Numbered from the stretch's first letter, positions 5,975 through 12,469 are shown. The stretch is 13,408 nt of DNA from a virus (IMGVR_UViG_2700989274_000003), one strand, 5' to 3'. Notes: generated by a model from the sequence alone, not told the origin. Made by a program: numbers and translations.

Positions 5975-6613
5975 TTAAATATCTTGTTGAATTTTAAAGC
6001 ATACGCCCAATATGCAAGATAGATCATCCAGCATAATTGAAGGGTAGCGAGGATTCGTGGGGACTAAAAGAATATCCGGCCCTTCTATCTCCAGTTTACG
6101 AATGACAGGTGTTGTGGTCCCTTTGGGTAAGGCAAGGACAATATTTCCTGGTTGTACGGTTCGATCGGGATCAACAAAAACTGTTGAACCATTTGGGATG
6201 GAAACTCCCCCACCAGATGTTGACATACTGTCACTCTCTAGAACAACTGCAAAGGTATTGACCGGGATTTCTCCGACAAGCTGCACACAAGAGGTTATTG
6301 AGGAATTTTTCATATAATCACTCCAGCTTGCTGCCTGCTGAAGTGATAGTAGCGGAACCGTTTTTATCGGCGGTAAAGATAGATCAAGCGAATCACCTGT
6401 ATTTAACTCTCCTCCATTAAGAAGCCAATTTTCGTTTACTTTCAATATTTTTGCCAGTGAACTTATGTAACGCGAGGACGGCGCTCCTCCACCGTTCATC
6501 CATTGACTTACGGAGCCTTTTGATGCGCCAGTGCCATTGACAAGGTCTTTGCCTTTCAGGTTTAGCGCATGCATACGTTGGGTTATGCGTTCAGATATAG
6601 TTTGCTTGCTCAT
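5975..6613 (-). CDS. cI: cI-like prophage repressor (N-terminal HTH, C-terminal S24 LexA-like autopeptidase domain)
   Basis: 212-aa ORF. N-terminus has an HTH-like segment (GASKGSVSQWMNGG). C-terminus has S24 signatures: Ser in VVLESDSMS and Lys in PVIRKL. Divergent from the cro-like gene. No SD upstream; -10 TAAAAT (plus 6620-6625) sits 7 nt from the ATG, suggesting a leaderless PRM-type transcript. Confidence 0.88.
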   Translation of the reverse strand: MSKQTISERITQRMHALNLKGKDLVNGTGASKGSVSQWMNGGGAPSSRYISSLAKILKVNENWLLNGGELNTGDSLDLSLPPIKTVPLLSLQQAASWSDYMKNSSITSCVQLVGEIPVNTFAVVLESDSMSTSGGGVSIPNGSTVFVDPDRTVQPGNIVLALPKGTTTPVIRKLEIEGPDILLVPTNPRYPSIMLDDLSCILGVCFKIQQDI

Positions 6614-6704
6614 GTTTTGATTTTAAAACACAGATGGTTTTGTTTCTTGACTTTCTTTGGTTTTGATTATTAAACTTTTGACGTTCAGTTTTATGGAGCG
6701 ACTC
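6614..6704. promoter_or_regulatory. Immunity-region divergent promoter/operator segment (OR-like) between cI and cro-like genes
   Basis: 91-bp intergenic region. Repeated GTTTTGATT-type motifs at 6614-6622 and 6659-6669, and TTTTGA at 6676-6681. Candidate PR -35 TTGACT at 6647-6652. Candidate PRM -10 TAAAAT on the minus strand at 6620-6625. Confidence 0.45.
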
Positions 6705-6935
6705 ATGAAAAAATCAGAAGTATTAGGCTATTTTGGCGGAGTTGTTAAAACAGCCGCAGCTCTAGGAACGTCAAAAACCACAGTCAGCATGTGGGGGGAA
6801 GAGGTTCCGTGGAAATGGGCGTTGCTAATTCAGGCAGTCACTGCCGGGGCGCTCAAATATGAGTTACACATACCGACGGTTGTCATTCCCGGTTCTGATC
6901 ATAATCCGCCTTCTAACCAAGGGGGGGATTCATGA
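6705..6935 (+). CDS. Cro/YdaS-like HTH regulator
   Basis: ATG 6705 with GGAG SD 6 nt upstream. HTH-like GGVVKTAAALGTSKTTVSMWGE resembles the Cro/YdaS family. Divergent from cI. Stop overlaps the next gene's ATG as ATGA. Confidence 0.78.
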   Translation: MKKSEVLGYFGGVVKTAAALGTSKTTVSMWGEEVPWKWALLIQAVTAGALKYELHIPTVVIPGSDHNPPSNQGGDS

Positions 6936-9652: not shown

Positions 9653-9821
9653 TTTTGGTTCAACTAAATACAACGTCAGTTTTGAAGAATGGCATGAACT
9701 GTTAATGGACTATGCAGAGTTACGTGGTGGCAGTGCTGCTGATGCTGAAGCATGGCGTGATGATTATGAAGCAGGAAAAACTCCGGTCGAAGCATATTGT
9801 GATGAGTGGGGCGATGAATGA
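9645..9821 (+). CDS. Small acidic protein (58 aa; MADFGSTKYNVSFEEWHELLMDYAELRGGSAADAEAWRDDYEAGKTPVEAYCDEWGDE), not in supplied ORF track
   Basis: Hand-translated. ATG 9645 with GAGGA SD about 8 nt upstream. Overlaps the upstream gene (ATGGCTGA) and the downstream gene (ATGA at 9818-9821). Confidence 0.5.
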   Translation: MADFGSTKYNVSFEEWHELLMDYAELRGGSAADAEAWRDDYEAGKTPVEAYCDEWGDE

Positions 9822-10134
9822 GCGAGGTTAATTATCAGGAAGGGCATGAAACGGCGGGGCAAGCAAAAACAGTGGCATGGCGATATCGCTACGTGAAAAA
9901 AAAGGCGTTACGGACTTTCAGGGGAAGTAGTGGTCTGGTGACTGGAAATATGTACCGAAAAAAGAGGATTGTAACGACAGGCCGAACTATGAAATTCAGG
10001 CCTTATTCACTGCCCCGCCAGTCCCGGTTACATCAGAAGAACTGGTTAAAGCTGTGCACTTTTATGAACAACTAAAACGCGAAAATCCACCAGCATCCGG
10101 AAACCTGATTACAGATTCCCAGATAAGGCAATGA
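9818..10134 (+). CDS. Hypothetical gene with frame discontinuity: frame A (9818...) carries two in-frame A AAA AAG heptamers; the protein-like downstream frame (9931..10134) is the -1 frame and has no start codon
   Basis: ATG 9818 is coupled to the upstream gene. Frame A after 9905 is R/K-rich and looks out-of-frame. The -1 frame 9931-10134 (…KEDCNDRPNYEIQALFTAPPVPVTSEELVKAVHFYEQLKRENPP…) looks protein-like but opens directly after a TAG (9928-9930) with no ATG/GTG/TTG. Heptamers at 9898-9904 and 9958-9964. Confidence 0.35.
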
Positions 10135-10230
10135 GCTACCTGGCGCAGAACGGGCTGATAAGTATGGGGAATGTTTTACGATGAATATTTAGACTAAAGA
10201 GTTTGTAACGCTATGTAAGTGATTTTTTCT

Positions 10231-10258
10231 GGTTTAGATATTTATATGTCCGGCCAAA
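10231..10258. repeat. Imperfect direct repeat copy 1 (GGTTTAG..ATATTTA..TGTCCGG..CAAA) upstream of the small membrane-protein gene
   Basis: Roughly 80% identical to 10502-10533 by eye, with indels. The two copies bracket the 59-aa gene. Confidence 0.4.
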
Positions 10259-10304
10259 TTGAGGTGTGTTTAAATGTAATTGCACATTGATTGTAGGAGG
10301 AATA

Positions 10305-10484
10305 ATGAAAAACGCATTGCAGTTTTTGTTTGTTGCGTTCTGGTTGTTCGTATCATGTATGCCCATCATCTTCACAGCAAGGTATATGGAAAAAGTTGAT
10401 GTTTTGATATTAATATTTGGATATATAAATGCCCTTTTTTTAGGGGTGTTCATGGCGGTCATGTGCATTGAATACTGGCGGTAA
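10305..10484 (+). CDS. Small hydrophobic protein, two predicted TM helices (59 aa), in AT-rich island
   Basis: ATG 10305 with AGGAGG SD (10295-10300). Product MKNALQFLFVAFWLFVSCMPIIFTARYMEKVDVLILIFGYINALFLGVFMAVMCIEYWR. Surrounding DNA (about 10140-10560) is markedly AT-rich. ORF track start 10266 has no RBS. Confidence 0.55.
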   Translation: MKNALQFLFVAFWLFVSCMPIIFTARYMEKVDVLILIFGYINALFLGVFMAVMCIEYWR

Positions 10485-10501
10485 ATACAGCGAACGCCAT
10501 T

Positions 10502-10533
10502 GGTTTAGTTGGATATTTACTGTGCCGGACAAA
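10502..10533. repeat. Imperfect direct repeat copy 2, immediately upstream of the hok promoter region
   Basis: GGTTTAGTTGGATATTTACTGTGCCGGACAAA, compared by eye with 10231-10258. Confidence 0.4.
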
Positions 10534-10538
10534 AACGG

Positions 10539-10567
10539 TTTGCGGGGAAATCTTAGTTAAGTAGAAT
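10539..10567 (+). promoter_or_regulatory. Candidate hok mRNA promoter (-10 TAGAAT at 10562-10567, weak -35 about 10539-10545)
   Basis: TAGAAT lies about 7 nt upstream of the 5' fold-back element (10572-10585), where the hok mRNA 5' end is expected. Confidence 0.35.
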
Positions 10568-10629
10568 GACTGCGGGTGCTTGAGGCTATCTGTCTCAGGC
10601 ATGAACACCAAAAGGCAGATAGAGAAAAG

Positions 10630-10694
10630 CCCCAGTTAACATTACGCGTCCTGCAAGACGCTTAACATTAATCTGAGGCCATATCTATGCGACA
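10630..10694 (-). ncRNA. sok: Predicted Sok-like antisense RNA (coordinates approximate)
   Basis: Minus-strand sigma70-like promoter: -35 TTGACC (plus 10724-10729), 16-bp spacer, -10 GCTAAT (plus 10702-10707). The transcript would be antisense to the mok SD (GAGG 10675-10678) and start codon (10687). The 3' end is not defined; no clean terminator was found by eye. Confidence 0.3.
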
Positions 10695-10746
10695 CATAGA
10701 GATTAGCCTCTTACGGACCGAAAGGTCAAGGAGAAGCAGGCTATGA
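10687..10746 (+). CDS. mok: mok-like upstream reading frame (19 codons) translationally coupled to hok
   Basis: ATG 10687 with GAGG SD 8 nt upstream. Stop TGA at 10744-10746 overlaps the hok ATG 10743-10745 (ATGA). Much shorter than R1 mok. Confidence 0.4.
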   Translation: MRHIEISLLRTERSRRSRL

Positions 10747-10898
10747 AGCAGCAAAAGGCGATGTTAATCGCCCTGATCGTCATCTGTTTAACCGTCATAG
10801 TGACGGCACTGGTAACGAGGAAAGACCTCTGCGAGGTACGAATCCGAACCGGCCAGACGGAGGTCGCTGTCTTCACAGCTTACGAACCTGAGGAGTAA
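10743..10898 (+). CDS. hok: Hok/Gef-family type I toxin (51 aa), HokD/RelF-like
   Basis: Product MKQQKAMLIALIVICLTVIVTALVTRKDLCEVRIRTGQTEVAVFTAYEPEE. Single N-terminal TM helix and the conserved TRKxLCE...EVAxFxAYE Hok signature. AGGAG SD 9 nt upstream. Confidence 0.9.
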   Translation: MKQQKAMLIALIVICLTVIVTALVTRKDLCEVRIRTGQTEVAVFTAYEPEE

Positions 10899-10966
10899 GA
10901 GACCTGGCGGGGGAGAAATCCCTCGCCACCTCTGATGTGTCAGGCATCCTCAACGCACCCGCACGT

Positions 10967-10995
10967 AACCCGCTTCGGCGGGTTTTGTTTTTTCC
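10967..10995 (+). terminator. Rho-independent terminator of hok mRNA (stem AACCCGC/GCGGGTT, UUCG loop, T-rich tail)
   Basis: AACCCGC-TTCG-GCGGGTT followed by TTGTTTTTT. It lies directly after the 3' fold-back element (10948-10962). Confidence 0.7.
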
Positions 10996-11065
10996 TGGCA
11001 TTCTGGTTTACAATTCGCACGCCAGCCTGAACAACTGGCACCTGCTGCGCCAGCAGAGACAACCG

Positions 11066-11344
11066 ATGGCGCACGATACCAAATTACACAATTCTAATGA
11101 TTCTGCCGTCTTTGCCAGTAGGTGCGGACGGCGTTTTCACGCATTCAAATCAGACTGGTTCCAGCATCCTCCATGCACTGAAGAGCAGGCGGAATGGATA
11201 ATTCAGTGTTACCGCAGGCGCGGATACGAGGTTAAGAAAGCTCTTAGCCTCGACTACCGTCACTGGATAATCTCAGTCAGACTCCCTTACTCCGAACGCC
11301 CACCGCGTTCATCCCGCACATACCAGCAACGGATCTGGAGGTAA
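11066..11344 (+). CDS. rem: Rem-like small protein (Qin-prophage rem position, between hok and ydfU)
   Basis: ORF 10937..11344; ATG 11066 (MAHDTKLHNS...) is the first start outside the hok terminator. Synteny hok-rem-ydfU-Q matches my recollection of K-12 Qin. The protein-level match is from memory, not searched. Confidence 0.5.
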   Translation: MAHDTKLHNSNDSAVFASRCGRRFHAFKSDWFQHPPCTEEQAEWIIQCYRRRGYEVKKALSLDYRHWIISVRLPYSERPPRSSRTYQQRIWR

Positions 11345-12459: not shown

Positions 12460-12469
12460 NNNNNNNNNN
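12460..12469. other. Run of 10 N (assembly or scaffold gap of unknown true length)
   Basis: nnnnnnnnnn in the sequence. The flanks differ sharply in GC content and gene content. Confidence 0.99.

Follow-up and report, generated by a model that had tools for sequence, protein, structure and literature searches.

Is the AT-rich DNA that lies immediately upstream of the hok locus in a lambdoid prophage a moron encoding a membrane protein and bracketed by the scars of its own insertion? This question is raised by a stretch of viral DNA, IMGVR_UViG_2700989274_000003 (13,408 nucleotides, numbered 5' to 3' on one strand and called the window hereafter), which corresponds to the left half of a lambdoid prophage of the Rac/Qin type. 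A preliminary description, made from the sequence alone, had delineated in it an AT-rich, moron-like island coding for a 59-residue protein with two transmembrane helices. The feature is genuine, but it represents ordinary lambdoid mosaicism, i.e. an accessory cassette with an unannotated gene for a small membrane protein. As a whole, it is rather probable that we are dealing with an exchangeable cassette of the nin region that comprises one real gene for a hairpin protein, is transcribed with the Cro operon and acts at the membrane through helix contacts.

A discrete AT-rich cassette upstream of hok

The preliminary description had pointed to a sharp drop in base composition around positions 10140-10560. 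This was confirmed for a segment of 343 bp (10185-10527), located between the stop codon of an upstream pseudogene and the hok/sok promoter, of which the guanine plus cytosine (GC) content amounts to 0.356 (35.6%), as compared with 0.485 (48.5%) for the whole window. It is the 343-nt segment with the lowest GC content of the entire sequence, and the 0.4% of all segments of this size that are equally poor in GC each overlap it. The proposal that this island represents a cassette also proved correct, as it forms a discrete AT-rich segment between conserved flanks, the boundaries of which were obtained by comparison with phage vB_EcoS-689R5 and with relatives in IMG/VR. The junctions with respect to 689R5 are found at 10184/10185, i.e. 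after the sequence ATGA (10181-10184), and at about 10527/10528, where homology returns at 'AAAAACGGTTTGCGG' (~10528), just 5' of the -35 element of hok.

Among 99 IMG/VR loci, the open reading frame (ORF) of the island showed 0-5 nucleotide differences, while both flanks were mosaic. For the upstream flank, no fewer than three classes that differ greatly from one another were distinguished; the leader and coding sequence of hok varied too. The finding of a nearly invariant island on at least three upstream backgrounds and next to several hok alleles implies therefore that the island moves as a module. As judged from these alignments, segment 10185-10527 is a discrete, recombinationally exchangeable mosaic cassette of the nin region. 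It is widespread: 1569 of the 5426 complete E. coli genomes (~29%) contain it at the threshold used for this count (≥95% identity), which was always reached where the island was present. At least 183 stretches of IMG/VR prophage contigs encode a relative, and a profile scan of IMG/VR yielded nothing but near-identical copies among the matches listed.

Two alleles (a42 and a36) were considered as alternative junctions and were rejected, as they correspond to insertions of IS1 and of an IS3-family insertion sequence (IS), not to recombination points. Elements of these types are inserted into the island or truncate it in L082/L312 (window-equivalent position 10236/7) and in L071 (~10497), and L129 retains only positions 10475-10525 of the island, everything to the left of ~10475 being replaced by an IS1A element. 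A decayed copy of the locus, considered solely as an illustration of decay, was observed in E. coli ECMA0423 (L006, 2990-3180), in which the 59-residue ORF contains several frameshifts and the hok leader has diverged; the 51-residue Hok coding sequence is identical to that of the window despite the decay of the neighbouring ORF.

The open reading frame of the cassette behaves as a gene

The single ORF of the cassette (10305-10484, + strand) encodes a protein of 59 residues (MKNALQFLFVAFWLFVSCMPIIFTARYMEKVDVLILIFGYINALFLGVFMAVMCIEYWR). A Shine-Dalgarno sequence, AGGAGG (10295-10300), is found 4 nt 5' of its ATG. The earlier assignment of one small gene with such a ribosome-binding site, adjacent to hok on its upstream side, was thus borne out. 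By contrast, the qualification of this gene as 'strongly expressed-looking' was not supported: its sole basis was the Shine-Dalgarno sequence, which is polymorphic at position 10298 (A/G) and reads AGGAGG or AGGGGG, each in about half of the distinct alleles.

The evidence that this ORF is a gene comes from a paralog (P0040/P0046; MRKILMYLCISIWIVISCVPIILTSEYLTEASIMALMFGHANALCIGVFISIIYIECWR), which was identified through an exhaustive HMMER search and also consists of 59 residues (41% identity, E = 3.7e-9). It is encoded in B2-type E. coli by a prophage remnant located between ttcA, the attachment site of Rac, and uspF. Among the 5426 complete E. coli genomes, 1045 (~19%) contain the paralog, Nissle 1917 and the type strain being two of them, and it is left without annotation by the Prokaryotic Genome Annotation Pipeline (PGAP). 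DNA homology between the two loci starts where the upstream gene ends and persists for ~45 nt beyond the stop codon of the ORF. Within this region, the 180-nt ORF aligns without any gap, with the same start, the same stop and the same length, at 59% nucleotide identity, the indels being confined to its outside (the 5' flank requires 34 gap columns). The paralog is also preceded by a purine-rich Shine-Dalgarno sequence (AGGGA, 6 nt before the ATG).

The substitutions separating the two subfamilies are those expected for a protein-coding sequence. Calculation by the method of Nei and Gojobori gave pN and pS values of 0.33 and 0.72, respectively, and a dN/dS ratio of ~0.19. The differences were distributed as 25/16/31 over the three codon positions, third positions being those that changed most. 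When the 72 substitutions were spread neutrally, the frame stayed open in 2.2% of the cases and at least 24 identical residues were conserved in 2.1%, both occurring together in 0.1% (P = 0.001). The two other frames of the alignment contained stops and merely 14 identical residues. Because of the ungapped paralog, the low dN/dS ratio, the outcome of the neutral simulation and the presence of a purine-rich Shine-Dalgarno sequence in both copies, these comparisons lead to the conclusion that the ORF represents a real gene, on which purifying selection acted in the long term.

Two other ORFs were examined and rejected. A GTG codon at 10266, used as a start (72 residues) in some annotations, is preceded by GAGG at a distance of merely 1 nt, while the ATG start is common to the paralog. 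An antisense ORF of 85 residues (10211-10468), annotated in phage PhiR42_1, displays no third-position polymorphism bias in its own frame and was judged to be a shadow of the gene on the + strand.

The surroundings of the paralog provide a view on the age of the association with hok. A frameshifted 3' remnant of hok (L232, 6235-6324) begins 55 nt after the paralogous gene (score of 68, versus 19 ± 2 for shuffled sequences). The small gene and hok must therefore have been neighbours already in the common ancestor of the two loci. In this remnant, the small gene (L232, 6001-6180) is intact while hok has decayed. The remainder of the locus is also heavily decayed, with an integrase fragment and fragments of sitD. 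Neither subfamily was found in K-12 at the loci checked.

Transcription of the gene and its status as a moron

How would such a gene be transcribed? A consensus scan of region 9900-11100 detected no promoter, and no terminator save that of hok. The best site found before the ORF with a position weight matrix (TTGAGG-N18-CACATT, starting at 10259) had a score of 7.5, versus 10.2 for the hok promoter, and was not conserved in the paralog, the leader of which contains the site TTGACA-N19-TACGTT (score of 10.05). The leader and trailer RNAs folded no better than shuffled sequences (z = -0.1 and -0.35), and there was no Rfam match in 10185-10527. Intrinsic-terminator prediction found nothing between the end of the ORF (10484) and the hok promoter and, on the + strand, nothing between 6657 (Cro) and the hok terminator at 10967. 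On the minus strand, promoter scores within the ORF were at most 6.9 and no terminator was found.

The ORF sits in a rightward array of genes on the same strand, downstream of Cro (6657-6935, + strand) and upstream of RusA and the antiterminator Q. As neither a promoter nor a terminator belonging to the cassette can be recognised, the gene is most likely transcribed within the Cro-led rightward early operon. The designation 'moron' is not supported if taken strictly, since neither a sigma-70 promoter nor an intrinsic terminator belonging to the gene was found and the latter forms part of the same-strand array downstream of Cro.

We considered the possibility that the gene is nevertheless a classical moron, i.e. 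an autonomous transcription unit beside hok, expressed in the lysogen and encoding a membrane toxin or a superinfection-exclusion factor. The moron concept was derived from the lambdoid phages HK97 and HK022 (reviewed in PMC3594210). Like the morons and other mosaic cassettes of lambdoid phages, the present element is a discrete segment of distinctly low GC content, lying between genes conserved among related phages, and it carries one small accessory gene outside the core phage cycle, exchanged as a unit among backgrounds. Its AT-rich leader of 120 nt is part of the cassette and has a homologous counterpart at the paralog, so that a weak or non-consensus promoter could be located there, as the above-mentioned scores might suggest. 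Furthermore, the preservation of the paralog in the B2 remnant, despite the decay of the adjacent hok and the loss of the upstream operon, would fit with an independent expression that is useful to the host. Yet, no consensus promoter or terminator was found, and the candidate promoter sites differ between the two subfamilies. In addition, the cassette replaces other small-ORF cassettes instead of adding 'more on' DNA, and no known family of exclusion factors or toxins is homologous to the protein. We therefore consider that a classical moron is unlikely and favor transcription from the Cro-led operon.

The protein is predicted to be a membrane hairpin

The protein is hydrophobic, with a grand average of hydropathy of 1.31. 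Two hydrophobic blocks (approximately residues 4-25 and 33-55; 15-residue Kyte-Doolittle means of up to 2.4) are separated by the sequence RYMEKVD. AlphaFold2 predicted a helix comprising residues 2-24, a loop and a second helix comprising residues 31-58, with a mean predicted local distance difference test score of 72.6. Both the hydropathy and the predicted hairpin agree with the initial view of a mini-protein with two transmembrane segments. Since the N-terminus of the paralog is positively charged (R2, K3) and its loop is acidic, the topology is probably N-in/C-in.

Several residues are invariant across the two subfamilies. They comprise W13, S17, C18, P20, I21, I22 and T24 in helix 1, L36, F38, G39, N42, A43 and L44 in helix 2, and the C-terminal E56, W58 and R59; G47, F49 and I55 are nearly invariant. 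Helix 2 displays a face of the type small-xxx-small-xxx-small (G39xxxA43xxxG47), together with a membrane-embedded Asn. A small-xxx-small face with a buried Asn is typical of helix-packing or oligomerisation surfaces.

Database searches did not link this protein with any described family. The 59-residue protein, its paralog and the alternative small ORFs presented below had no match in Pfam, PHROG, NCBIfam or PADLOC. A profile search of the PDB found nothing, and Foldseek comparison with viral models returned only generic helical hairpins, which were not significant. A profile built on both subfamilies did not reveal a third one, a scan of GTDB species representatives found the family in E. 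coli and Shigella and in no others, and a literature search for peptide strings of the protein was negative. On the basis of these searches, the proteins constitute an unannotated family of two subfamilies, restricted to E. coli and Shigella.

Another interpretation of the conserved residues of helix 1 is that the protein is a small lipoprotein, residues 1-17 serving as signal peptide and being followed by the lipobox (L/I)(F/V)(V/I)-S-C18. This is improbable, and so is its corollary that cleavage by Lsp would leave a lipidated protein of 42 residues, additionally anchored by helix 2. Both subfamilies agree with the PROSITE PS51257-type pattern, with K or R among the first 7 residues, six uncharged residues preceding the box, one of [AGS] at position -1 and a Cys at position 18. 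Furthermore, S17, C18 and P20 are invariant at an overall identity of 41%, with variable hydrophobic residues around them. However, the hydrophobic stretch runs 7 residues beyond the Cys, the helix predicted by AlphaFold2 continues without interruption from residue 2 to residue 24, and the residue at position -3 is F or V instead of L. The pattern is moreover prone to false positives in transmembrane helices. The predicted hairpin with two membrane-spanning helices is the more probable form of the protein.

A possible role at the inner membrane

We propose that the small gene would be co-transcribed within the Cro-led rightward early operon and translated from its own Shine-Dalgarno sequence. 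The protein would in this case be made mainly upon induction or infection, and not as the product of a moron expressed in the lysogen. It would insert into the inner membrane as a helical hairpin, and the face formed by the Asn and the small residues could engage in helix-helix contacts, leading either to self-association or to the binding of a host membrane protein. Membrane function might thereby be altered to the benefit of the phage, e.g. through the exclusion of superinfecting phages or the modulation of a host membrane protein. A role as a stand-alone killer toxin would not be required. That the protein acts in the inner membrane through such contacts is suggested, with low certainty, by its architecture and by analogy with other small proteins of phages.

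Small inner-membrane proteins of phages and prophages that reportedly act on the host envelope include T4 Imm, HK97 gp15 and P22 SieA. The 59-residue protein shares with these and with DicB of Qin (PMC6832061) the property of being a very small, membrane-associated accessory protein encoded by a phage, which makes interference at the level of the membrane plausible. It is related to none of them in sequence or by family (searches of Pfam, PHROG, PADLOC, PDB and BFVD being negative). DicB itself is not a transmembrane protein.

The type I toxins of the Hok/Gef group and GhoT, of the type V system GhoST, are similar in size (~50-60 residues) and in the possession of hydrophobic helices, GhoT resembling the present protein further in that two transmembrane helices are predicted. 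Hok comprises one transmembrane helix and a periplasmic tail. The 59-residue gene physically adjoins a bona fide hok/sok locus, but an antisense RNA gene, a structured leader and a partner antitoxin were not found for it. With respect to the usual description of type I toxin-antitoxin systems, a small hydrophobic ORF (≤~60 residues) is present, and no gene for an antisense or divergent small RNA (sRNA) antitoxin was found. No homology with Hok, Ldr, TisB, Ibs, ShoB, Zor, DinQ or GhoT was detected in Pfam and NCBIfam (E ≤1, noise aside).

A last comparison is with class II holins and pinholins. Pinholin S21 68 displays a GxxxSxxxG face in its second transmembrane domain. The 59-residue protein shares with this type of proteins the two transmembrane helices, a size close to 60-70 residues and the small-xxx-small-xxx-small motif in helix 2. 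In contrast to the holins, the genes of which are found downstream of Q in the late lysis cassette beside those for endolysin and spanin, it is encoded upstream of Q in the early/nin region, and it has neither a highly charged cytoplasmic C-terminal tail (the sequence ends with EYWR only) nor a dual start. No match to a holin family was found in Pfam or PHROG.

Points against the proposed interpretation

Several observations weigh against the interpretation of the locus as a cassette with one real gene, transcribed from the Cro operon and acting at the membrane. In none of the RefSeq records inspected does PGAP annotate the ORF. The island subfamily shows 12 polymorphisms in the ORF, all but one of them (11) being nonsynonymous (common variants being V16A, V31I, I37M and Y40H), and frameshifted, truncated and IS-disrupted copies of the island occur. 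Hydrophobicity alone is weak evidence, as T-rich DNA tends toward hydrophobic ORFs. As to transcription, the leader (~120 nt, 31% GC) may contain a weak or non-sigma-70 promoter. Finally, the suggestion of a membrane modulator or exclusion factor comes from architecture and analogy only, none of the family libraries (Pfam, PHROG, NCBIfam, PADLOC, PDB and viral models) pointing to a function.

The first of these points raise the possibility that the ORF is non-functional and that the island amounts to filler in decay between the nin genes and hok, either non-coding or pseudogenic, in which the open frame and the hydrophobicity are by-products of T-richness. The confinement of the family to one species would also fit with this. 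The 11:1 excess of nonsynonymous polymorphisms appears to be consistent with relaxed or diversifying selection at present, unlike the long-term dN/dS ratio of 0.19. Yet, filler would account neither for a paralog in which, despite a nucleotide identity of 59%, start, stop and length are the same and indels are found outside the ORF but not inside, nor for the dN/dS ratio and the result of the neutral simulation. Furthermore, 201 of the 203 full-length matches to the ORF that were fetched are intact, a figure that includes repeat fetches of the same contigs and does not represent 203 independent copies. That the ORF lacks a function is therefore very improbable, and we maintain that it is a gene, as far as can be judged from its pattern of substitutions.

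A slot for small ORFs upstream of hok

What occupies this position in the relatives that lack the island? When island-less lambdoid contigs were compared (loci L131-L230), about two thirds of them proved to contain, at this very position, another tiny hydrophobic ORF, which belonged to one of three classes. These ORFs (~27-34 residues) have a single transmembrane segment and match no family. The first class is a 27-residue peptide, MTWPEA(L/F)TTVGIAMAVALVVYSICRWG, the second one reads ...MSDDISLAMEGALAVIAVVGVYCLVVFLMDRLGN, and the third one (M/V)VLVLKCALAIAAVMAIYCLAVVLMDHLSD. Class 1 starts at the same ATGA that marks the left junction of the cassette. In the window, this ATG overlaps the stop of the upstream gene and opens a remnant of three codons, ATG AAT ATT TAG (MNI*; 10181-10192, + strand, read from the sequence), so that only a stub is kept of what is, in island-less relatives, a transmembrane ORF of 27 residues (MTWPEA..CRWG). 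The polymorphism of class 1 is of the coding type, with 17 synonymous versus 14 nonsynonymous changes and 18 of the 31 changes at third positions. Some small transmembrane ORF occupied the slot in ~84% of the hok loci of both fetched sets, a value that is inflated by the selection of the first set for the presence of the island.

A perfect palindrome of 22 bp (CGATATGGGAATTCCCATATCG) was observed between the stop codon of the class-2 ORF and the hok promoter, close to the 5' side of the hok -35 element, in IMG/VR class-2 loci (e.g. L207). It could correspond to an operator or a hairpin.

The slot has thus at least four unrelated occupants, the 59-residue hairpin and the three single-transmembrane peptides, and in the two copies of the cassette, which diverged long ago, the 59-residue gene adjoins hok. 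One may imagine that the slot by the hok/sok promoter is a dedicated and rapidly exchanged place for small membrane proteins that work with Hok, though we give this little credence. There is equally little chance, in our opinion, that the occupants tune or gate the membrane damage caused by Hok, confer immunity to it, or form with Hok an effector pair for abortive infection or exclusion. If this were true, the linkage with hok would be functional and not mere neighbourhood.

The direct repeats do not delimit the cassette

According to the preliminary description, the island is flanked by imperfect direct repeats of about 30 bp, taken to suggest the insertion of a cassette or duplicated regulatory sites. 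The repeats exist at the positions indicated and exceed chance, though weakly; the module is not enclosed between them. The left copy (10230-10258, + strand) lies 46 nt inside the cassette, and the right copy (10501-10533, + strand) spans the right junction (~10528), just 5' of the hok -35 element. Their alignment (TGGTTTA----GATATTTA-TATGTCCGGCCAAA with TGGTTTAGTTGGATATTTACTGTG-CCGGACAAA) comprises three gaps and reaches a local score of 25, which 2 of 2000 shuffles also attained, as did 6 of 344 controls with the same spacing taken from the real sequence of the window. In the paralogous cassette there is no such repeat, the best score between the flanks being 14, i.e. at chance level (shuffle mean of 14.6). 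Polymorphisms are as frequent within the repeats as elsewhere.

The idea that the repeats are insertion scars or boundaries was therefore discarded, as they are off the junctions, imperfect with three gaps and absent from the paralogous cassette. By comparison of the two cassettes, they are incidental or lineage-specific sequences rather than target-site duplications or att-like scars, and a regulatory role is unlikely. The notion that they are duplicated regulatory sites, recognised by one shared factor or serving as UP-like elements before a weak promoter of the small gene (TTGAGG, 10259) and that of hok (TTGCGG, 10540), has hardly any likelihood, for although the similarity exceeds chance and the copies end 0 and 6 nt before a TTG.GG hexamer, the hok promoters of relatives work with entirely different upstream sequences, the paralog has no repeat and polymorphisms are not rarer inside the copies.

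Prophage setting, hok/sok locus and comparison with K-12

The minus strand of the window encodes an integrase (2-1297), an exonuclease and, at 5975-6613, an S24 repressor resembling cI. The + strand carries, after Cro, a YdaT-like protein, a replication gene and a DUF977 protein, together with several small ORFs of the nin type. Beyond the cassette, hok, a DUF968/YdfU protein, RusA and Q follow. A run of 10 N, i.e. masked or unknown bases, is present at 12460-12469, inside ORFs of the RusA region.

The gene that precedes the cassette is a frameshifted pseudogene of the nin region (9818-10184, + strand), with a TGA stop at 10182-10184. It is labelled by PGAP as a 'frameshifted; internal stop' pseudogene in an O104:H4 genome that is identical with the window over 10100-10620. 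In this record the pseudogene ends at the equivalent of ~10134, not 10184; the latter end was taken from other records, in which the gene is intact (204 residues, strain 7/2) or frameshifted (1EC213). Phage 689R5 has a 114-residue version. Intact versions of 114 to 204 residues are found in relatives, and the sequences fall into at least three divergent classes.

Downstream of the cassette, the candidate promoter of hok (TTGCGG-N16-TAGAAT; 10540-10567, + strand) has the best position weight matrix score of the neighbourhood, which places it in the top 0.007% of the sites of the window. It stands directly upstream of the start (10574) of an Rfam match to the sok/hok leader, the hok mRNA leader and sok-mok region extending from 10574 to 10745 on the + strand (RF01794, 106.7 bits, E = 7e-25). 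The coding sequence of the HokD-type toxin follows (10743-10898, + strand; Pfam HOK_GEF, 1.2e-23; PHROG 251; hokD according to PGAP). The hok terminator (10967-10984, + strand) is the first intrinsic terminator predicted on this strand after the small gene. An Rfam match to the Gifsy-1 sRNA IsrK (10907-10988) covers the 3' untranslated region and the terminator of hok and is below threshold (27 bits, as compared with a gathering score of 50; E = 0.0017).

The position of the island had been likened to that of relBE upstream of hokD in K-12. In the Qin prophage of K-12, the genes relB-relE-hokD-rem-ydfU are collinear, and homology with the window starts only at the Shine-Dalgarno sequence of hok (~10729). 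The analogy is approximate: relBE does replace the island in position, but it also replaces the hok promoter and the sok/mok leader, up to ~10729, while the island ends at ~10527, well before this point. The island is absent from LF82 Tritos, for which RNA-seq data exist, and the locus of the paralog in LF82 is without annotation in published tables. The expression of hokD in LF82, hence without the island, has been reported to be 3792-fold above the prophage background (PMC9928086, Table 1).

Significance

If the gene is expressed, a conserved family of small membrane proteins, carried by ~29% (island subfamily) and ~19% (paralog) of complete E. coli genomes, has been missed by current annotation. 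The recurrent slot beside hok/sok, in which lambdoid phages exchange tiny transmembrane proteins, also provides a limited group of candidates for a function in exclusion, in the modulation of membranes or as toxins.

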